DNA from: a virus
Lineage: Duplodnaviria; Caudoviricetes
IMG/VR virus record: IMGVR_UViG_3300020576_002947
Coordinates: 96,001 to 160,000 of that record
Length of the DNA stretch: 64,000 nt
Reading direction: 5' to 3' (one strand)
Both the position numbers and the translations under genes were made by a program. Shown in pieces: positions 1,946 through 23,630 of this stretch. Positions within the stretch are counted from its first letter, which is position 1; every line of letters begins with the position of its first letter. Below the pieces are notes generated by a model. The model searched no databases. It was not told where the DNA came from and saw only the letters and a program-made list of their open reading frames with translations.

Positions 1946-3046
1946 TTAACTTTGTTCTTGTATAAGCACTCCTGTGATTACAGGAGTAACGCCAGTAGAC
2001 TGTCTACTAAGTGTTATAGTAGCGTCTGTATTATTTATGATGACTGGAAGCTCTGATAATGTTAGCAGGTCTTTGCCTTTTAGGGCTAAAGTACTAATAT
2101 CAAGACCCCAAGGATTGGTTACCTTTAGTACTCCAGTATTGTCAAAGGTCTGACTTAAAAGTCTAACCTTACCAAGACCCATTACTATATTCTCATCAGC
2201 ACTTAGTTTAATTCTAATAGCTGACACTACAGTACCAGGCATGAAAACTCTTAGAGGGCCAGCATTGTTTACCCAAGCATTTGAGTAAAGATCTTGATTA
2301 TACCCAGGAAGGTATGACAAGTCTAGTGTGGTCCAAGTAGATAGATTGCTTGCTTCTGCAGTAAGATAACCTATCTCCTCAATATTACAAGCAAATGCAG
2401 GAAGAGGGTATATCTCTAGACATGTAGGAGCTTTATATTGAGACCCATAAGGAATATCAATTCTAACCCATAAGTATCTTTTAGTACCAGAAATAGTTTC
2501 TAGTTCCTCAACTAAAGGCTGCTTGCATTCTATAAATAGTTCACTATTAGGAGCTTCCCTATAGTCATTCAATGAGTGAGCACTTCCACTTGATTGTGCT
2601 GTCCAAACTCGTATATCTGAGGAAGCTCTTGTAAGTCCATAAAGATCTGTATAGTTTAACAGATCAGTCTCTTCTAGTACGGGAAGAGTAGCTTGCCCAA
2701 AGACTGTTGAGATAGAGCATGTCGTATCGCCCGTCACAACCTGTGAAGAGGAGTGCATGCTTATTAGTGCCATTCCAGAGCTAGAGAGGCTAGAAGCCCT
2801 GCTAGAGAGCGAAGAAACCATGTTCTGTATTCCTAGTGCTGACGCACTGGTAGCTTCTGATAGATCTAGATACGCATTCTGAGCTAAGGTAGCAAAAGCT
2901 TTAAGCTCAGCCGTATCATTAAAGATACCATTAATAAATGATTGTAGCTGCTGACTATTTGAAGTGGCACCACTGCTTACTGTAAGAGGCAGATAAGCCC
3001 CGAATTTTAATGATAAAAATGATCGTTCTAATCTATTCATAGCCAC
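1946..3046 (-). CDS. Virion structural protein (baseplate/fibre-associated; paralogue family member)
   Basis: 366 aa; N-terminal helical segment, beta-rich body, C-terminal TPVITGV motif shared with three upstream genes. Confidence 0.55.
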   Translation of the reverse strand: MAMNRLERSFLSLKFGAYLPLTVSSGATSNSQQLQSFINGIFNDTAELKAFATLAQNAYLDLSEATSASALGIQNMVSSLSSRASSLSSSGMALISMHSSSQVVTGDTTCSISTVFGQATLPVLEETDLLNYTDLYGLTRASSDIRVWTAQSSGSAHSLNDYREAPNSELFIECKQPLVEELETISGTKRYLWVRIDIPYGSQYKAPTCLEIYPLPAFACNIEEIGYLTAEASNLSTWTTLDLSYLPGYNQDLYSNAWVNNAGPLRVFMPGTVVSAIRIKLSADENIVMGLGKVRLLSQTFDNTGVLKVTNPWGLDISTLALKGKDLLTLSELPVIINNTDATITLSRQSTGVTPVITGVLIQEQS

Positions 3047-3390
3047 TTTCTCTTAGTAGTTTTTAGTTGCAGATATTCTTGAAATTCTATCTGAGCTCTT
3101 AAATGAGCTAGCTCTGCTAAAACTGCCGTACTATAAGACAGTCTTGAATTAATTGTTTCGGAGTATGTCACAATACTATCAGCTAAGGTTAAAAAGTTAA
3201 GAACAAAAGCCTGTAGATTCTTTTGGATTAGTGAGAACTTAAATGATTCTCTAGGTCCGTTAAATCTAAATGCAGAGATTGGTATAAACGGAGAGTTTTT
3301 TGCCTCTGCTATATACCAATTATCAACAACGATGTTTTCGTTTCTGACTTGGTAGGCCCCTAAGGTTTCTTTTACTTCGGTTTCGAACAT
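3037..3390 (-). CDS. Small virion-associated protein
   Basis: 117 aa; FRFNGPRES motif followed by an amphipathic helix; lies in the structural operon. Confidence 0.45.
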   Translation of the reverse strand: MFETEVKETLGAYQVRNENIVVDNWYIAEAKNSPFIPISAFRFNGPRESFKFSLIQKNLQAFVLNFLTLADSIVTYSETINSRLSYSTAVLAELAHLRAQIEFQEYLQLKTTKRKWL

Positions 3391-3391
3391 T

Positions 3392-5575
3392 TTACTTTGT
3401 TAGTATCTTCACAGATCTGAGTTTTGGTGTAAGTGTGTTTGATTGGTTTGTTCTTAACTCAAACTTATAATCAATAGTAGTTGTATTAACTAAGTCTGTA
3501 ATGCTAGAATTGAATCCTGAGTACTTCACACTTAAATTAGGTTGATTACTTAATTTAGAGCCAATAAAACCGTCAATAATATCAGACGAATTTTTATTTA
3601 AAGCGATTTTGTTAGGATAGCCTGTGTCTTTCCAAGCCCAGTACTTAAAGGACTTTGGTAAATTAAAACCAAGGTCGAATTCTGATACTGGATCAAAGGT
3701 GCCTGTCCCAACAATATCTGTTACTTCATAAAGTCTTTTAAACTCTGTGTCTAAGATGTTTGGATAAAGAGTAAGCTGTAAATACTTTTCAGTTGTAGAG
3801 TTAGCATCATTAGCAATAGCTGGTAGCTCAGGGCAGTAGAAGTACAACTCGAAAGTATTCCAGCCCTTGTTTATCATAAAGGACCAATTGGTGCCTACAC
3901 TTGCGCCAGATTGTGAGCTTCCGTCTGTATAAAGGGTAAATGGACTTTGTGAAGAACAGACCCTAATATCATTAATATATACAGAGAAAATTCCATAGGA
4001 CAGTCCTAGCTGCTGAAATGTTCTTGTACTAGGAGTTCGATGTCCCTGTAAAAACCAATACTTACCAAAATCAATAACAGAATCTTTATTAGCAAAAAAT
4101 TTATATTGGATTTTATATATGTAATTCTCTCTTGCAGCAGATGATTGCCCGTTGTGAAGAGGAAGGATTGATAAGCTTGTGTATTGAAATTCAGAGTCTT
4201 GCTCACCAATAAACAACTGGTTGTCTTTTGTTAGTGAGGTATGCTCATCACCATAAGGCACTAACTGAACTTCGACACTCTCTGAAGAAGTAGACAACTG
4301 ATCAACACTAGATATCGTTTCCCAGCAGACTAAACTCCCTGCATCTTTAAATAGGCCAGGGTGTAAATCAGGGTAGAAGCTTCCTTCATCTGTGGGGATC
4401 TTTTTGATCGTTGAGATTTCGACTTGATCTCTTCCTATTGTAAGAGTACCTTCTCGGGAGTTTGAGATATTGTCAAAGGTGTTTGTGTAATAGTAAAGTC
4501 CATTAGGTTCTAATGACGCCACTGTGATCGGATACTCTGTGGTCTCCGGTGTTGTATTAACTGTCCAGGCATCAGGTTTAACCTTTACCCACGCACCTGA
4601 GTCTATCTTTACATATGGAATCACATATGTTCCTTGTGGTACATCAGCTTCATAAGATACTTTATAAGAACTGAATTTACTTGAGGGTGTAAAAGAAGTG
4701 CTTACAACTAAGGATTCATCATTATATCTAAGTGCAACAAGTTCAATACTTTCTGTTCCAAAAACGCTATTTAAGGTATCTTCGACAGGAGATAACTCTA
4801 CAAGCATCTTTGTAGCTTGCTGAATAAGAACAGGGTAAGATCCCTTTATCTTTGTAACTGCATTTACTACAGAGTGCCAGTTTCCTTCTCTTAGGAGCTG
4901 GATCTTTATATGAGTATTTCCAACAGGATTAATAACTATCTCGGTAACATTAGTTTCTTTGATATCTATCGTAGCTTTGATCTTTGAATCTTTGCCACTA
5001 GCAAGGAATTTAGCTCCTGTGAAAACATTATTCCTTACCCCAAAAACAGTACAATTTTCAAGATTAATATAATAATTATTAAAATCAAGGGCTTCTGTAT
5101 GAACTAAAGAATAGGGAATATACGCAGCCTGCAGCTCAGAATCTATGATAGAGTTTGTCTCTTCAAGATCAAGCCAGTTTGTATTATAGAATGTTTGAAG
5201 ATGGGCCCATGAGGCATATCCTTGAGAGATAGATGTTAGAAACTCACTTGTCTTTCTATACTGCTCAACTCTCTTCATACTAAGAGACATCTTATTAAGA
5301 ATTAGCTGGTAGCTCTGATTAGTATTCTTAGTTAGATTATTATAAGCTGTAATAGCAATATTTGTATCCAACTCTATGGAAGTAACATAATCTTTTAACT
5401 TTTTATTATCTATGTTCTCATAAGGGACTGCTTTATATAAACTAGCACTAGGCTTACCTAAGATGATCTTAGCATCTAGTGTCGTATTGAAAGTAACAAA
5501 GTCCCCTGAAAGAAAAGATCTTTGAGCTCTCTTATCAAGTATGTATTCTTTTTGAGCTGCCGTAATTAATGACAT
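3392..5575 (-). CDS. Virion structural protein (paralogue family member)
   Basis: 727 aa; N-terminal coiled coil, beta-rich body, ends LTPKLRSVKI. Confidence 0.6.
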   Translation of the reverse strand: MSLITAAQKEYILDKRAQRSFLSGDFVTFNTTLDAKIILGKPSASLYKAVPYENIDNKKLKDYVTSIELDTNIAITAYNNLTKNTNQSYQLILNKMSLSMKRVEQYRKTSEFLTSISQGYASWAHLQTFYNTNWLDLEETNSIIDSELQAAYIPYSLVHTEALDFNNYYINLENCTVFGVRNNVFTGAKFLASGKDSKIKATIDIKETNVTEIVINPVGNTHIKIQLLREGNWHSVVNAVTKIKGSYPVLIQQATKMLVELSPVEDTLNSVFGTESIELVALRYNDESLVVSTSFTPSSKFSSYKVSYEADVPQGTYVIPYVKIDSGAWVKVKPDAWTVNTTPETTEYPITVASLEPNGLYYYTNTFDNISNSREGTLTIGRDQVEISTIKKIPTDEGSFYPDLHPGLFKDAGSLVCWETISSVDQLSTSSESVEVQLVPYGDEHTSLTKDNQLFIGEQDSEFQYTSLSILPLHNGQSSAARENYIYKIQYKFFANKDSVIDFGKYWFLQGHRTPSTRTFQQLGLSYGIFSVYINDIRVCSSQSPFTLYTDGSSQSGASVGTNWSFMINKGWNTFELYFYCPELPAIANDANSTTEKYLQLTLYPNILDTEFKRLYEVTDIVGTGTFDPVSEFDLGFNLPKSFKYWAWKDTGYPNKIALNKNSSDIIDGFIGSKLSNQPNLSVKYSGFNSSITDLVNTTTIDYKFELRTNQSNTLTPKLRSVKILTK

Positions 5576-15856: not shown

Positions 15857-17462
15857 ACTTAATTAAAACCTCTTTTGAGAGTGAAGTGGAGCTATTAGCT
15901 ATTACCTTAGAGTCTGTCGTTGATGAGACACTTATCTTATCTGATAAAGCAAATATGTTAGATACCTCTCTAGTCGTAGTTACAGAAATAGAGTTATTAT
16001 ACTCAATTCTACTTACATCAGGGATTATAAACTTAGAATCTGAATCACACTTTAATTGGATAGTCTGAGATTTAGGATAACCATAGCCCGCTATTCCACT
16101 AGTATAAAGTACAGGAGCATTTTCTGCACCTAAATCCTTTACACCAAGCAAGAGCACACTCCCTGAATGTACTTTAGCATTATCCACAGGATTGCTTACA
16201 TCTATCAGAACAGAAGCTGATACTGAATCACTAATTGCCCAAACCCTAGTAGTCTGTGTTGGTGCTAAGCTAATTAGCATCTCACCCTTTAAGTCTGTTA
16301 AAGTAGATGACGGATAAGCATATGTAATGAGTGAGGAGCTAAAACTACTAGTACCTGCAGAATTCGTTAGAAGTATCGTTACATCTTTCTGTGGTATAGG
16401 TAACAGGTTCTTATAAAGTACCTGAACTCTAACACTAACTTCCTCTTCCCATCCAGAGCAGATAGAAGTCTTTGAACTAGTAATGTTTATAGTGTTAGTT
16501 GTTCTACTATCAGCCAAGCTACCAGATGTAGAATGGTGGAATAGATAGCCTGTTCTAAAACTGTTTGGCAGGAGTGGATTAAAGTTTGCTCGACCAGCGG
16601 CTATGCTAACTTCTGGCATAGCTAAACTAAGAGAGTTAGCACTCTCCCATTCGACCCTAACAGTATCGCTAGCAGCAGAAGTAAAGACTAGAATTTGATT
16701 TGACTGAGTACCTAATGTCCATGAGAAAGGTACGTAGTATTCAGCTCTAACCCATTGACCATCTTCTCCTGAGAACGGAGATGTAATAGTACCAGAGGAT
16801 AGTCCTGAGTAGCTTTGTGAGCTTGAGCCTCTTACCAGAGTAGTGTTGTATCTATGATAGTAAGTAGGGTAGACATAGCCCTCAGTGATTCTCAGAAGCT
16901 CGCTAATAAGAAGAGTGGAGCTTGTCTGAGATATATCGAAGAATAGAGAGGATGCTGGTGTTGTTTCTGACTTAACCTGAACAGTTAGGCCTGAAACATA
17001 ATAGCTGTAACTATCTAGATCTTGTACTCTCGGTACTGGGTAAAGATCCCAATACAATCCTCTAGCACCTAGAATTGAAGTACCAGAGCTTAGTGTAGAT
17101 TCCCATATGCCTGAAGATACTTCAGTCCATGATAGATTTTGAGCCGCTCTTAGATAATTAAGTACAGGAACATACTGGTAAGCTGACCCAAACACCTCTA
17201 GATCGGAGTTGTATCCATTTAAAGATTCCGTTAAGGTTACTGTGTTTGATCCTGATACAAGTGCTGAGGTTAGGGTAGACGCTGAGATAAAGAGCCTTTT
17301 CTCAATACCATCTAAGTCATAGTAATGGCCGGGCTTTAAAGTTAGATTCCACTCACAGTTAGGACCTAGAATAACTCTTGGCTCGAGTGAGGACTCTTGT
17401 GAAATGCCAATACTAGGGTATCCTAAACTAGTTAAATCACTTGTTGTACGATTTCTATTCAT
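15846..17462 (-). CDS. Structural protein with Ig-like (Big_1-type) domain
   Basis: 538 aa; VSVRVQVLYKNLLPIPQKDVTI…TLTDLKGEM is an Ig-like Big_1 pattern. Confidence 0.5.
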   Translation of the reverse strand: MNRNRTTSDLTSLGYPSIGISQESSLEPRVILGPNCEWNLTLKPGHYYDLDGIEKRLFISASTLTSALVSGSNTVTLTESLNGYNSDLEVFGSAYQYVPVLNYLRAAQNLSWTEVSSGIWESTLSSGTSILGARGLYWDLYPVPRVQDLDSYSYYVSGLTVQVKSETTPASSLFFDISQTSSTLLISELLRITEGYVYPTYYHRYNTTLVRGSSSQSYSGLSSGTITSPFSGEDGQWVRAEYYVPFSWTLGTQSNQILVFTSAASDTVRVEWESANSLSLAMPEVSIAAGRANFNPLLPNSFRTGYLFHHSTSGSLADSRTTNTINITSSKTSICSGWEEEVSVRVQVLYKNLLPIPQKDVTILLTNSAGTSSFSSSLITYAYPSSTLTDLKGEMLISLAPTQTTRVWAISDSVSASVLIDVSNPVDNAKVHSGSVLLLGVKDLGAENAPVLYTSGIAGYGYPKSQTIQLKCDSDSKFIIPDVSRIEYNNSISVTTTREVSNIFALSDKISVSSTTDSKVIANSSTSLSKEVLIKYGQ

Positions 17463-18955
17463 TAGAAGTATGCAAATTCGGGATTATTAGCTTCGTTATT
17501 ATCCCATTGTTCGTGTAGAACAGGCCTATTTATAGTAGAGCCTACTACAGTTGATTGGTGAAGAAATCTATTATAGAGGATTGGATTATTAAAAGCTGGG
17601 ACGTTAGTAGTCGTAAACATTTGACTTAGAGTTGTTATTGAACCGTACTCTCCCTTTGCATCTAGCGTAGTATAAATATCTTCTTCAGTATCAACTCTAA
17701 TCCAAGACGATGTTCCAAACGTGTTTGCAAAGTAAGAACCGTCTCTATAGTTTAAACCTGTATATGACCTAGTAAACTTAGGTAAACTCAGAACCTCATC
17801 AGTGCTACTAAGAGTCGTACTAGATGCTACCGAACTTGCTGAGTACGTTGCTGTAGTGAAAAGCAAACTCATTTTAGAGCCTAGTCTAGTTGATTCTGGG
17901 TAAAGCTGAAGAATCCTCTCCCAATCTTCTAAGCTATACTTACTCAAATTTAACTCAGGAGTAATGACTTTTAAGAACCACAAAGGATTTTCGTCTAGTG
18001 AGTAATAGTGTTCTGTAGATACTTTATTATCTATTTTTAAGGTTTTATTAAGTAAACAACTTTTTAGATAGTCAGACTGATAGTAGATTGCATAAGTACC
18101 TTCTTGCATAGTAAGAGTTGAGTTCTGACTACTATAAATCAGGTCTGTTGTTCTTATGACCTTTCCCTCTCCTACTGAGTCTACTACATAAAAATAAGAG
18201 TAGTCTGTAATAGGATTGGATGCCATCTCACTACTCAAATCAATTACACCACTAACAGTTCTCTTTACAGTACTAAACAAGTCTGCATTTTTCATTACTA
18301 CTCTATTATCGTAGATAGTAACGTAGGGCTTTAATGGGTATGTTGAGGAGCCTTCCCAATCCACTCTGCTTGGAAGCCAGTGTTCTGTATTCATCACTTC
18401 AACCTCTGAAATAACATCATTAATAGATAGTGGAATATTTAAGTTTTCACATGTTAGTTTAAAAGGCTTAAACCAGTCAGTGAGATATAAAGTGCCCCAT
18501 GACAACCAAGAGTTAACTGACTTCACCAGAGCATGTTCAAGCTTAACTAAATTATTGTTTTGTACCCACTGAGGGATGATGTACGGGCTCAGTGTATTTA
18601 AGTTATAGGGTATTACAGTAGGTTTAGTAGGCAATACTTTAGTCTGCCATCTAATACGAACCCCCATAGCTGGAACAGGTATAGGATACTCAACATCGCA
18701 AAGATAAATTATTTCATTAGAGTCATCTGAAACTACTAACCATCTAACCACACCCTCAACATAGCTAAAATTAGTAGCTTCTACAGAACCTGTAACAGTA
18801 AAAGTAAGGGGAGCTTCAGAAAGGATGAAACCAGATACATCTGCATATGTATGAGTTGATATTGGTTGATACCCCGGATTGATAAGGAAAGCTTTAAACC
18901 CTTGCTCCCAATCAGTGATAGGCCCTCCACTGTAGCTAGTATAGGTAAGGTGCAT
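17462..18955 (-). CDS. Baseplate/tail structural protein
   Basis: 497 aa; its C-terminus WDNNEANNPEFAYF matches that of 22386..23630. Confidence 0.5.
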   Translation of the reverse strand: MHLTYTSYSGGPITDWEQGFKAFLINPGYQPISTHTYADVSGFILSEAPLTFTVTGSVEATNFSYVEGVVRWLVVSDDSNEIIYLCDVEYPIPVPAMGVRIRWQTKVLPTKPTVIPYNLNTLSPYIIPQWVQNNNLVKLEHALVKSVNSWLSWGTLYLTDWFKPFKLTCENLNIPLSINDVISEVEVMNTEHWLPSRVDWEGSSTYPLKPYVTIYDNRVVMKNADLFSTVKRTVSGVIDLSSEMASNPITDYSYFYVVDSVGEGKVIRTTDLIYSSQNSTLTMQEGTYAIYYQSDYLKSCLLNKTLKIDNKVSTEHYYSLDENPLWFLKVITPELNLSKYSLEDWERILQLYPESTRLGSKMSLLFTTATYSASSVASSTTLSSTDEVLSLPKFTRSYTGLNYRDGSYFANTFGTSSWIRVDTEEDIYTTLDAKGEYGSITTLSQMFTTTNVPAFNNPILYNRFLHQSTVVGSTINRPVLHEQWDNNEANNPEFAYF

Positions 18956-19015: not shown

Positions 19016-21589
19016 TTATTTTGCAGCACGCATTAGCTCTAAAAGTTGTTCTCGATTATTAGTAATCAGACCTTCAGTAGTTGTGATCTGACCGGCGATA
19101 CTTGAAGCAGTACGAACAGCAGATCTAACTACTACTAGTGGATCAATAACCATGATTTGGTCGTAAGGCACTACTTCTAGTGTCTCAATATTATACGTCA
19201 TCTTAGGATCTACGGCACCTAGGAGGCTGATTAAAAGATTTTGAATCTCATCAGTACTCCACCCGTAGTTGGTAAGGATTTTATACACAGGTGTGCAAAG
19301 GGCTTCATACAAGCTCTTCCTCATCTCGTGTGGAATATCCTCAAGAGTTGGGTCACTATAAGCTGTGATACCAGCAAGAGCCAGCATTATACCACCACCA
19401 GGAAGAATTCCATGCTGTAGAGCAGCTCTGGTAGCATTTACAGCATCTTCGTAGCGATATCGCTTTTCAACTAACTCAACAAAGTTATTTGAGCCAATCT
19501 TAATTTCTGCTGCTTTACCAGTAAGTCTTGATATTCTCTTCCTATAATAGTCAGGGCTAGTGTCTAGTTTACTAGTCAGATAGTCAATTCTTGCTTGGTA
19601 GCCTTCTCCACCATTGCCAGAAATAAAAGTAGTCTTATTCTCTAGAATGATAACCTTTTTGGCTTGACCGCACATAGCTGGCTTAATCTGAGACACATCT
19701 GTCATTAGGTCAGGTGTAATACTTACACCACCCAAGAAAGCAGCCATATCTTTCATAGACTCTCTTCGCTCATCGCTATAGTCAGGAGCCCTAACAGTAG
19801 CAATCTTTAATCTGTTGTTGAGCTTGTTCTTAGTTAAGAACTCCAAAGCCTCTCCAAACACTCCAGCAGTAACAAGAATGATTGGTCTTTCAGTACCGAA
19901 ATGGCTTCTAATAGTCTCAAGCATTTTAATTAGGTGCTGAGACTTCTCTAGTGATTGATCCATCGTAACAACAATTGGATCATCATACTCTACAGACATC
20001 TTATTGATATCAGTAATGAAGAAGGGACTCTCATAACCATTATCAAATGAAAATCCGTGAGTGTACTCTATTGTAGTATTTGCAATGTCACTCTGCCCTA
20101 AGGTAATAGCTGCATCAGGACCGACTTCTCTAAAAGCCTCTCCTACAATCTGACCTACAGTCTCATCATTACCAGCAATTTTTGCAACAGCTTCTACCAT
20201 TGGCGAAGCTAGATCAACAGGAATAGCATTGCTTTCTAGATAGTTAATGACCATTTCTGTAAATCTTTGAAGATCTACTTGTCTCTTATACCTATCCTTG
20301 TTGATAAAAGGAAGCATTGACTTGATTAACTCATAAGTCAAAAGAGTAGTGGTTGTCGTATTGTGTGTAAATACAAAATTATCTGTTACGTAAAGATTAT
20401 CAGGATTGCTTACAGAGATACACTGCATTTCTGTAAATCGACCAGTAGGGACAATTCTCAAAATAGAGTTTCCATACTTATCTCCCTTTAACTCTGTAAC
20501 ACGATAAATTGTTGTTTCAGAGTAAGAAGCTCCAGGTTTCCTTACATATTCGTAGCAAGAAACAGTCTTTCCTAGGCTTCTCATTAGCTCAACAACATCT
20601 TGTGCTAGTTGGTAACTAACTGTACCGTACTCTAACCGTCCTCTTGAATTTATATGCCCATCTGTATCAGCTAATCCTCTTAAGAGTTCTTCCCGATCTT
20701 CTATGCTCGCATAGAGATACTGTGTAGGAATAAACTTAGTTTCACTTTTTGTACCAAGTAAACCTATTTCATCAACAAGACGATGCATCGTCTTACCATC
20801 TGGAGTAATACCTCTTAACTTTACTCTGTGATAATGTTTATTCTCATTATAAACAGAGTAAGCCTCAATCCCATCAGGAAGCGGCAAGCTATCAATAATA
20901 TGTTCCTGGTCTTCGGCTAGTGATAATTCTATACTACCTGTACCACTTAAACTACCATCTCCTATTAATAGACCTACTAGGTAAGGGTGTAAAGTTTGGT
21001 TACTAGTGTGAAAGTCTACCCACGATTGAGGAGTAAAAAAGCGTGTGCCATCCCTATGCTCATTAGAGTGCATTTCATCTAATATTCGTTTTGTAGTTAA
21101 AGTTTTGACTTTACCCCAACTAGTAGTTACTGTCCATAGATGATCTTCACAGCACTCTACTACACGGTCACCTCCTAGGTACACCTCGTAAATTTCTTTT
21201 TTACCTTTAGGGTAGATTCCCTCAACTTCCTGAATCGTACCATTGGCCCCACATACCACATCACCTACTTTTAAAGATCCCATCGTTACCCATCCTTGCG
21301 GGGTAAGAATTTTACTATAGAGAGGCTGTGGTCCATCGCCAGCAAGCTCATTAGCTTTAATAGCCGCTTGCTTAACTAGCTGAGCACCCATGTTCTCCGC
21401 TTCATCTAGCAGAACAATATTCCGTGCTACTGTTACTCCGTCTTTTGTGGTAAGGGGGAATTGGTCCCCATAAAGTACTGAACCTCCACCAGGCCCCATA
21501 GTGCATGAAACGATGTCAGATAACTTCTTAGCGCCTTCAATAAGTGGATTGCGTGCAAGCTCACCATGCCGAATATCTTTTCCAGTCAT
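19016..21589 (-). CDS. groEL: Phage group I chaperonin GroEL-like protein, intein-containing (533 aa after splicing)
   Basis: TMGPGG, TKDGVTVA, AGDG|TTTT, EDAVNATRAA, ILPGGG and VIDP motifs of Cpn60. 857 aa minus a 324-aa insert gives 533 aa. Confidence 0.95.
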   Translation of the reverse strand: MTGKDIRHGELARNPLIEGAKKLSDIVSCTMGPGGGSVLYGDQFPLTTKDGVTVARNIVLLDEAENMGAQLVKQAAIKANELAGDGPQPLYSKILTPQGWVTMGSLKVGDVVCGANGTIQEVEGIYPKGKKEIYEVYLGGDRVVECCEDHLWTVTTSWGKVKTLTTKRILDEMHSNEHRDGTRFFTPQSWVDFHTSNQTLHPYLVGLLIGDGSLSGTGSIELSLAEDQEHIIDSLPLPDGIEAYSVYNENKHYHRVKLRGITPDGKTMHRLVDEIGLLGTKSETKFIPTQYLYASIEDREELLRGLADTDGHINSRGRLEYGTVSYQLAQDVVELMRSLGKTVSCYEYVRKPGASYSETTIYRVTELKGDKYGNSILRIVPTGRFTEMQCISVSNPDNLYVTDNFVFTHNTTTTTLLTYELIKSMLPFINKDRYKRQVDLQRFTEMVINYLESNAIPVDLASPMVEAVAKIAGNDETVGQIVGEAFREVGPDAAITLGQSDIANTTIEYTHGFSFDNGYESPFFITDINKMSVEYDDPIVVTMDQSLEKSQHLIKMLETIRSHFGTERPIILVTAGVFGEALEFLTKNKLNNRLKIATVRAPDYSDERRESMKDMAAFLGGVSITPDLMTDVSQIKPAMCGQAKKVIILENKTTFISGNGGEGYQARIDYLTSKLDTSPDYYRKRISRLTGKAAEIKIGSNNFVELVEKRYRYEDAVNATRAALQHGILPGGGIMLALAGITAYSDPTLEDIPHEMRKSLYEALCTPVYKILTNYGWSTDEIQNLLISLLGAVDPKMTYNIETLEVVPYDQIMVIDPLVVVRSAVRTASSIAGQITTTEGLITNNREQLLELMRAAK
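20360..21331 (-). mobile_element. Intein with LAGLIDADG homing endonuclease (class 3 type, Pro1)
   Basis: Residues 87-410. Block A PQPLYSKILTPQG, block B ECCEDHLW, endonuclease blocks YLVGLLIGDG and LLRGLADTDG, block F MQCISV, block G FVFTHN followed by Thr+1. Confidence 0.93.
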
Positions 21590-21926: not shown

Positions 21927-22465
21927 CTACTGGCGGTATATAAAACTAAGCAGTCACACACAGTCTCTCTCAAGTACTTAGGACAACTCTCTATCTGTTT
22001 ATAACTAGAGGGTAGGATCATTAGCACACTTGTCATTATTTGAGTTTTATCTAAGTTTCCATTACCAAAAACTTCTTTCTTAGCTGTTTTAGGTTGTATT
22101 GGAATAAATAAGGTAATCTTTTTATTAAGCAAAAGACTGTAGACTAGTCCTTGGCAGAAGCTTAATGCTTTCACAGCAGAGAAACTTTGAGACCCTACAG
22201 GAGTCTCTGTGATGATAGTAGTTATATCGTGCTTATTGATTACTTCATCAATTGTTTGAAGGAAATTAACAGCAGTGGTTTCGAGATTCTTGCTATCTCC
22301 TTTCATTGACCCCCAGTCAACGAGATTATAGTCGTTAACTACAGCCCACCCAAAACACGATATGCTTGGGTCTAGAACGAGTATATTAGAAGAATGCAAA
22401 CTCTGAGGGATCTTGGATATCTGCGTCCCAGAGGGTTGCGGTTTTCGCACGGTTTTGGTTTTCAA
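21923..22465 (-). CDS. ruvC: RuvC-like Holliday junction resolvase (start uncertain)
   Basis: ILVLDPSISCFGWAVV, IITETP, PKTAKKEVFGNGNLDK and C-terminal ETVCDC motifs of the RuvC family. Confidence 0.85.
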   Translation of the reverse strand: MKTKTVRKPQPSGTQISKIPQSLHSSNILVLDPSISCFGWAVVNDYNLVDWGSMKGDSKNLETTAVNFLQTIDEVINKHDITTIITETPVGSQSFSAVKALSFCQGLVYSLLLNKKITLFIPIQPKTAKKEVFGNGNLDKTQIMTSVLMILPSSYKQIESCPKYLRETVCDCLVLYTASR

Positions 22466-23630
22466 TATTTACTCCTGAGTACTGCACAGCACTAGGCATT
22501 TCTTGCTCAGAAAGCTGCCAAACACCTGTATCAGAAAACACCTCACATAGAGCAGACTTTCCTTGGAAAGAGCCCCTATCCCAACCGAACTCTCCAATAG
22601 TAGCTTCTTTGATTGTGTTATCTATTGTAATGTCATCAGTTGAAAAGTAGGTTAGAGATAAATACTTTGGATGATTGATACAAAAGTTTTGTGCTGAGAC
22701 TGACGGGGTATAAGAAGACGCTAAATTAAAAGCACCGGCTAGAATAGCTTCGTAGTATTGGGAACTTGGTTGAAACTCTAGCTTTAGTATAGGGTCTAGT
22801 CGTAAGCTAAGCTGATAAGAAGTTTCAGGTTCAAGCCTATGAAGATTGTAAATCAATCCAAGACTGTCTACGCTTGTCCACATTTTTTGCCTTTCAGCAG
22901 TTACAGTAACACTATTGTTAACTAGTATATCAATATATCTTTGCTGATAACCTGAGCGTTTATACATAAACTCAAATATACCTGACACACCTAAGCTTCC
23001 AGCTCTCATAACATTTGAGGATATAGTTACAAAGTTATTAGTATGTCCAGGGTGCCTAGCAAAAACAAAACTTTCTCCACTCCATAATCCGTCAGGCAAG
23101 GTTGGGATAGTGGAGTCATCTATAATAGCAGATGCATAACCAACTGAGAAAAGAAAGATTCTATCATTATCCCAAACCCAAGCAGTCTCAGGAGTTACTA
23201 AAGACTCATAGTAGTTCTTATTTCTACAAGTTAGAAACGTGTTGTTTACAGATAGTTTTACAGTGGTAGGGTAGTCTTGGTAGTTAACGACCCATCCAAA
23301 ACTTTCCTCATCAAGATTATATCCTAACCCAATATTAAAATATTCTCCTAGTATAAAAGACTTCATGTTCTGAGTCTGATTTGCTAGATTAACTAATAAA
23401 GAGTTTAATAAATCAGGACCTAAAAAGCTTGTACCAGCATTAGTTATTACTGTGCTAGGTAATGTTGTTAGGGATGACACCGACCCTTGATCTAGCGTAA
23501 TAGGCGTTGTAGGATCATAAAAAACAGCATCCTCAAAAGCACCTTCTACTCGATTGATTGAAAACCATCGAGGTAAGTAACCGAAACTAGGCACCCAGTT
23601 AGGTGCGAGTATGTTGCCAAAATCTAACAA
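22386..23630 (-). CDS. Baseplate wedge protein (P2 gpI-like motif)
   Basis: 414 aa; follows the gpJ-like gene; VDSLGLIYNLHRLEPETSYQLSLRL resembles the LDxxG…R..GE.D..YR motif. Confidence 0.6.
   Translation of the reverse strand: MLDFGNILAPNWVPSFGYLPRWFSINRVEGAFEDAVFYDPTTPITLDQGSVSSLTTLPSTVITNAGTSFLGPDLLNSLLVNLANQTQNMKSFILGEYFNIGLGYNLDEESFGWVVNYQDYPTTVKLSVNNTFLTCRNKNYYESLVTPETAWVWDNDRIFLFSVGYASAIIDDSTIPTLPDGLWSGESFVFARHPGHTNNFVTISSNVMRAGSLGVSGIFEFMYKRSGYQQRYIDILVNNSVTVTAERQKMWTSVDSLGLIYNLHRLEPETSYQLSLRLDPILKLEFQPSSQYYEAILAGAFNLASSYTPSVSAQNFCINHPKYLSLTYFSTDDITIDNTIKEATIGEFGWDRGSFQGKSALCEVFSDTGVWQLSEQEMPSAVQYSGVNIENQNRAKTATLWDADIQDPSEFAFF

Follow-up and report, generated by a model that had tools for sequence, protein, structure and literature searches.

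What is a 324-residue insert doing inside a phage chaperonin gene? Within the window, a 64,000-nucleotide stretch (positions 96,001 to 160,000) of the IMG/VR record IMGVR_UViG_3300020576_002947, the groEL precursor of an uncultured water phage is encoded by one uninterrupted frame of 857 codons (19016-21589, minus strand), in which an insert divides the GDG|TTT phosphate-binding (ATP-binding) loop of the phage GroEL, with the two GroEL parts (exteins) on either side. Inteins are known mainly from proteins of replication, repair, and nucleotide metabolism. We consider it very probable that the insert is a selfish class 3 homing intein with a LAGLIDADG endonuclease, on whose splicing the function of the phage's sole GroEL depends.

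The groEL locus and its insert

In Pfam searches of the precursor, Cpn60_TCP1 was matched in two stretches (101.7 bits versus a cut-off of 34.3), with LAGLIDADG_3 and Hom_end between them. The NCBIfam GroEL models scored 330-342 bits, under their strict cut-offs (352-582) because the protein is split and divergent, and these profiles pick up again at profile position 86-88, which corresponds to residue 409-411. BlastP against a bacterial-type GroEL aligned residues 4-86 with its residues 3-87 (44% identity) and residues 411-847 with 88-523 (29% identity), and the nucleotide-site motifs TMGPGG, TKDGVT, GDG|TTT, EDAVNATRAA, PGGG, and IDP all aligned with their bacterial-type counterparts. The junctions of the insert read ...NELAGDG|PQPLYSKILT and ...FVFTHN|TTTTTLLT, placing it after G86 in the phage protein's own numbering, which we take by our count to be between G88 and T89 of E. 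coli GroEL. Translation of 20360-21331 gives exactly the 324 residues from Pro1 to Asn324. The original prediction, made from the DNA letters, proved exact on this translation in its coordinates, its junction, and the residues it named: DHLW contains His64 and Trp66, MQCISV contains Cys304, and FTHN contains Thr322, His323, and Asn324, followed by the Thr at position +1 (Thr+1).

Class 3 inteins lack an N-terminal nucleophile and have a Trp/Cys/Thr (WCT) triplet, made up of Trp at position 12 of block B, Cys at position 4 of block F, and Thr at position 5 of block G; Ser or Thr is usual at +1, and the block F cysteine carries splicing (PMC2807308). In biochemical terms the class is marked by a strict need for this cysteine and by a thiol-labile branched intermediate formed on it. 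The insert shows the same features, i.e., Pro1 in place of Cys, Ser, or Thr, the WCT triplet, a C-terminal His-Asn, and Thr+1, and its boundary at Pro1 is firm because natural intein-free alleles (see below) fix it. Phmmer searches against solved structures matched the N-terminal splicing part to gp41-1 (E-value 1.8e-7) and to a WCT-grafted variant of it (4.8e-9), while the class 3 MchDnaB1 intein (6rix) was matched at 1.2e-5 with His-x-Trp and Cys...Thr-His-Asn in register, and the middle part of the insert matched the PI-SceI endonuclease. This middle part scored 3.4e-10 against LAGLIDADG_3 and 8e-7 against Hom_end in Pfam, and both LAGLIDADG motifs are intact with their acidic residues, Asp125 and Asp224.

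An AlphaFold2 model of the intein, built on 40 relatives, reached a predicted local distance difference test score (pLDDT) of 93.9 and a predicted template modelling score (pTM) of 0.91. Foldseek matched the model to PI-SceI (2.6e-16) as well as to TliVMA and PI-PfuI (range 2.6e-16 to 4.8e-10), and the class 3 mini-inteins 6rix and 6bs8 were matched too, with target-normalised template modelling scores of 0.72-0.81. The insert is predicted with high confidence to be a HINT fold with a nested LAGLIDADG endonuclease. By its residues, its alignment, and its fold model it is a class-3-type intein, which bears out what had been proposed for it (class 3, with Pro1, WCT, and Thr+1, in GDG|TTT). It could be argued that the insert is instead an in-frame endonuclease gene, an intron open reading frame (ORF), or an accessory domain that the mature chaperonin retains, as the Pfam intein splicing models give no match on it. 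We regard this as barely credible, since the predicted fold matches solved inteins, the gp41-1 and MchDnaB1 sequence matches span both splicing halves, the C-terminal His-Asn and the Thr that follows are invariant, and natural alleles exist without precisely these residues. Coordinates of the precursor and its parts are collected in Table 1.

Table 1. Parts of the groEL precursor and of its intein (positions in the window; intein residues counted from Pro1)
Feature	Position	Strand	Evidence or remark
groEL precursor ORF	19016..21589	-	857 residues: N-extein 86, intein 324, C-extein 447, then stop
N-extein, residues 1-86, ending ...AGDG, GroEL equatorial domain	21332..21589	-	NCBIfam, BLASTP
Class-3-type intein, 324 residues, Pro1-Asn324	20360..21331	-	Sequence, alignment, fold model
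N-terminal splicing (HINT) part, about residues 1-100	21032..21331	-	Alignment, structure matches
Block A, P-Q-P-L	21320-21331	-	Within N-terminal splicing part
Block B, Cys60, Cys61, His64, Trp66	His64 21140-21142; Trp66 21134-21136	-	Within N-terminal splicing part
LAGLIDADG homing endonuclease domain, about residues 101-284	20480..21031	-	Pfam, alignment, fold model
LAGLIDADG motif 1, LVGLLIGDGSL, Asp125	Asp125 20957-20959	-	
LAGLIDADG motif 2, LLRGLADTDGHI, Asp224	Asp224 20660-20662	-	
C-terminal splicing part, about residues 285-324	20360..20479	-	Alignment, structure matches
Block F, Cys304	20420-20422	-	
Block G, Thr322-His323-Asn324	20360-20368	-	
C-extein, 447 residues, from Thr+1 (20357-20359) of the TTT phosphate loop; stop codon 19016-19018	19016..20359	-	Profiles, BLASTP

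A family of inteins at one GroEL site

Looking for Cpn60 proteins with an insert at this site, as the original prediction had suggested, turned up at least 119 other GroEL clusters. In a search of 5.8 billion proteins the best 120 matches consisted of the query and 119 other GroEL clusters, every one of the latter with an insert at the identical GDG|TTT site; nearly all of the 120 were 800-920 residues long, and the two or three shorter ones seem incomplete. When the 120 GroEL inteins were aligned, Cys304, His323, Asn324, and Thr+1 were present in all (120/120 each), Pro1 and His64 in 119/119 each, Thr322 in 119/120, and Trp66 in 116, with Phe in the other 4. The endonuclease residues Asp125 (117/120) and Asp224 (118/120) were likewise kept, and in block B Cys60 was invariant and Cys61 nearly so. 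On this alignment, the presence of an insert with a class 3 signature at this site is not chance, because at least 119 other proteins have it at the identical site and its signature residues are near-invariant.

GroEL inteins made up 37 of the 80 related loci kept from IMG/VR. At the GroEL site these loci included mini-inteins without the endonuclease, of 139 residues in L077-L080 (at 3001-3417), 247 residues in L072, and 263 residues in L033, and frame-broken copies in L027-L029. Such mini and frame-broken copies would represent separate steps of a homing cycle played out at a single GroEL site.

Relatives in other host proteins

The next relatives of the GroEL inteins (29-37% identity) were in other host proteins. 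In PIN-PhoH proteins they lie at ...LPG|PQPL...THN|T/S and in PhoH and SNF2 Walker A loops at GxGK|AQPL...THN|T, and a portal protein was also among the hosts. We aligned 40 inteins from GroEL, PhoH, SNF2, and unassigned Walker A hosts, an alignment that ends before the +1 residue; the WCT residues, His64, Cys60, His323, and Asn324 were invariant across it, and residue 1 was Ala in the relatives from Walker A loops. A maximum-likelihood tree placed the 20 GroEL inteins in one group on a long branch with 100/100 support, adjoined by the PhoH 'LPG' inteins with 94/74 support. This topology fits one colonisation of GroEL from a phosphate-loop intein.

Presence, absence, and horizontal movement

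Near-identical GroEL genes of relatives were found to be polymorphic for presence or absence of the intein at the precise site (P0119/P0131, P0003/P0147, P0037/P0139), and 90%-identity clusters hold intein-bearing and intein-free forms with precise AGDG|TTT junctions. The intein-bearing P0119 (885 residues) has exteins 99.6% identical to the intein-free P0122 (560 residues), with a precise AGDG|TTTS junction, and compared with the intein-free P0131 (560 residues) there was 1 difference in 560 residues. The exteins of P0003 versus P0147, and of P0037 versus P0139 and P0141, pairs with and without the intein, were 94-96% identical. Between intein-bearing members of the P0119 cluster, 10-20 of the 15-24 differences fall in the intein.

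Compared with the other 119, the phage's intein had a mean identity of 52.6% (range 43-60%) and its exteins a mean identity of 31.0% (range 26-34%). Over all 7,140 pairs the intein was the more similar part in 96.6%, and intein and extein identities were uncorrelated. Because the intein is faster than the extein within lineages yet more similar between lineages, we infer that the GroEL intein must move horizontally. The flanks of the insertion site read GGN GAY GGN|ACN ACN ACN, in which only codon positions 1 and 2 are conserved, and no DNA-level homing-site signal was seen in the flanks beyond this codon-level conservation. GC content at third codon positions (0.26 in the intein versus 0.32 in the exteins, p = 0.08) gave no clear foreign signature.

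Selection on this copy and its strains

The C-extein is a singleton: of its best 150 matches in 1.84 billion representatives none exceeds 36% identity, and because it lacks close relatives no empty allele of the phage's own gene is known. Several studies of water, runoff, and freshwater include runs in which the phage or close strains of it were present, with no RNA run among the listed runs holding the phage. Contigs of four runs showed no joint skipping the intein, although contigs drop rare variants and are uninformative on absence. A strain diverged by about 1.5% keeps the intein, and its contigs bridge both junctions.

Comparison with this strain (the counts are of the differences listed, 20 further ones lying outside the listed set) gave 25 synonymous and 0 non-synonymous differences in the exteins and 8 synonymous and 5 non-synonymous in the intein, a contrast with a Fisher p-value of 0.0026. 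All 5 of the non-synonymous changes fall in endonuclease residues 153-241. The differences indicate that the GroEL protein is under strong purifying selection, from which it follows that it must be spliced to a working protein, and that constraint on the endonuclease is looser, in line with what a fixed intein would lead one to expect. Separately, no difference from the strain in run X3 (about 1.5% diverged) was listed over the 416 bases of 20916-21331 (intein residues 1-138), while the stretches on either side carry many; at a uniform rate the chance of none there would be about 0.001. This stretch without a listed difference could be a recent conversion tract or could reflect strong constraint, a reading made uncertain by the 20 differences outside the listed set.

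Several points weigh against the reading of the insert as a working, mobile intein. The matches used to compare intein and extein identities were selected partly by intein similarity; no intein-free allele of the phage's own GroEL was found, mobility being seen in relatives only; the five non-synonymous differences in the endonuclease domain would fit a decaying endonuclease here; and this copy has Ser306, two residues past the Cys304 nucleophile, where 112 of the 120 relatives have Lys. The substitution of the consensus Lys near the nucleophile and the five changes in the intein, along with the broken copies in other phages, could be taken to mean that the insert no longer splices and that the GroEL gene has in effect died, leaving the degenerate relic of a past invasion. 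We think this very unlikely, as the frame is open over 857 codons with every catalytic residue present, the extein differences listed are all synonymous, and the GroEL ATP-site motifs are intact.

Splicing, spread, and the question of regulation

As groEL is the sole Cpn60 gene of the genome and the insert lies in the phosphate loop, GroEL activity plausibly needs splicing. The 857-residue precursor would be translated whole and splice by the pathway of the DnaB intein from mycobacteriophage Bethlehem (MP-Be; PMC2807308). Cys304 in block F would attack the Gly86-Pro1 peptide bond with His64 and Trp66 assisting, the N-extein would then be transferred to the Thr+1 side chain, cyclisation of Asn324 would free the intein, and an acyl shift would leave a normal 533-residue GroEL with its GDGTTT loop intact. 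As to spread, the population data suggest that, once released, the endonuclease would cleave the groEL of co-infecting phages that lack the intein, at the sequence encoding GDGTTT, and that repair of the cut allele would copy the intein in.

The possibility had been raised that splicing is gated, i.e., that the intein is kept as a conditional switch through which redox state, metal ions, or temperature would time chaperonin activity in infection. There is a precedent in the Mycobacterium smegmatis DnaB P-loop class 3 intein, in which oxidation reversibly stops splicing by way of a disulfide with the block F cysteine (PMC6195587), and in the GroEL inteins the invariant Cys60 and near-invariant Cys61 lie in block B by the active site, alongside Cys304, with the splicing residues very strongly conserved across hosts. 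However, Cys60 is common to the relatives in PhoH and SNF2 hosts and to the class 1 gp41-1, which makes it a family trait and not a GroEL adaptation. Near-identical phages also do without the intein, mini and broken copies exist at the GroEL site, and the endonuclease domain is under relaxed constraint, with a population pattern that fits a selfish element. We therefore hold a role as a switch to be unlikely, and it is similarly doubtful that the Cys60/Cys61/Cys304 cluster makes splicing redox- or metal-sensitive, so that the chaperonin would be switched on post-translationally under permissive conditions. If true, a redox- or metal-gated GroEL intein would be the first instance of protein splicing controlling a chaperone. 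On balance, a selfish element that is tolerated because it splices, and not a regulator, is the best reading of the intein.

Comparison with known inteins, databases, and the literature

Among the closest known systems is the MP-Be DnaB intein, the class 3 prototype (PMC2807308), which like the GroEL insert has Pro1, Thr+1, a phage host, and an NTP-binding host protein. Its Trp67, Cys320, Thr339, and Asn341 occupy the same block positions as Trp66, Cys304, Thr322, and Asn324 here (PMC2807308), both inteins have a block B His two residues ahead of the Trp, and both are full length (341 residues in MP-Be). They differ in that the MP-Be host protein is a helicase, whereas the GroEL intein sits in the GDG|TTT phosphate loop of a chaperonin and has Cys60-Cys61 in block B; its splicing is predicted. 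The class 3 inteins of phage and bacterial PhoH, SNF2, and DnaB Walker A loops (e.g., M. smegmatis DnaBi1 and M. chimaera DnaB1; 6bs8, 6rix; PMC6195587, PMC7664689) are of the same family in sequence and fold. They share with the GroEL inteins an [A/P]-Q-P-L start, a C...L-Y...T-H-N end, and insertion into a glycine-rich phosphate-binding loop just ahead of a Thr or Ser. The GroEL inteins nevertheless form their own tree group, at 29-37% identity, and the loop that they occupy is not of the Walker A type.

PI-SceI, TliVMA, and PI-PfuI belong to class 1 and start with a Cys; they are larger and have an additional region for DNA recognition. Like the GroEL intein these (1vde, 7qsu, and 1dq3, respectively) have a HINT splicing domain with a nested LAGLIDADG endonuclease, though at a sequence identity of 12-18%. 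The best PDB sequence match to the N-terminal splicing part was gp41-1 (6qaz; WCT-grafted variant 6riz), which has a Cys at the Cys60 position and a THN end as the GroEL intein does; unlike it, gp41-1 belongs to class 1 and has Cys1 as its nucleophile (PMC7664689), and the solved chain is of 128 residues without an endonuclease domain.

A megablast search of the gene against 50,697 phage records found no near-identical phage. When cultured phages were searched by tblastn with the intein, the C-extein, and the N-junction as queries, both GroEL genes and relatives of the intein came up, with no listed match combining the two, and the GroEL matches examined in cultured phages were contiguous. Some candidates were rejected. 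The 1-116 match in Enterococcus phage Efs 1-1-1 (L089, OR846590.1 4808-10143, UNVERIFIED_ORG) was a bacterial-type groES-groEL pair with a GGM tail and without an intein, probably host DNA in the assembly. Matches of 831-1166 residues that we inspected from the representative search did not carry an intein at this site; GDG, where present, was directly followed by TTT or a close variant, and some of these proteins held two GroEL-like segments per chain.

In the searchable literature, which leaves most subscription journals outside it, no paper named GroEL or any chaperonin as an intein host, and the papers examined there that pair inteins with GroEL, a chaperonin, or phages deal with expression tags or with different genes. 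The suggestion that a chaperonin is an unusual intein host held for the searchable papers. The site itself is not rare, being filled in well over a hundred metagenomic GroEL clusters. In sum, mechanism and architecture are known, and the host protein and site are new to the searchable literature, yet common in metagenomes.

Genome context

The IMG/VR record is 239,691 bp long and about 94% complete, and a Cpn10 gene is present in the genome. Outside the window, a 203-residue frame at G000:C1:52180-52713 (+) (L086, L087) has two tandem Cpn10/GroES matches (2.2e-20 and a weaker one of 1.1e-4), and this frame, 63 kb from groEL, may encode a co-chaperonin with a duplicated domain. The genome has two more inteins, of the standard kind and likewise outside the window, at G000:C1:33123-36026 (+) and G000:C1:168223-170508 (-) (L083, L085); both match Pfam Intein_splicing and LAGLIDADG_3, and one of them sits in a ribonucleotide reductase (Ribonuc_red_lgC match). 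With the GroEL intein, the phage thus carries at least three.

Within the window, groEL shares its strand with a baseplate wedge gene and with a RuvC-like resolvase. The original prediction had extended the dependence on splicing to virion assembly, a link that rests on the position of groEL beside baseplate genes and is not supported. The large proteins flanking groEL, at 17462-18955 (-) and 22386-23630 (-), have similar C-termini (...NNPEFAYF and ...DPSEFAFF), and no PHROG family was matched by either.

Implications

When a phage groEL gene of about 850-920 codons is annotated, it should be taken to carry an intein and not to be a fusion. The numerous natural class 3 inteins of this family, whose junction is Gly(-1)/Thr(+1), are a possible tool for protein engineering. 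The GroEL intein family is large and, with full-length, mini, broken, and empty alleles at one site, is also a data set for the homing cycle. A published proposal on extein switching holds that resemblance between nucleotide-binding sites allows inteins to move from one gene to an unrelated one (bioRxiv 10.1101/2025.01.02.630785), and the nearest relatives of the GroEL inteins, being in PhoH and SNF2 phosphate loops, fit that idea. The chaperonin is a new kind of intein host in which the rule of targeting nucleotide-binding loops is kept.

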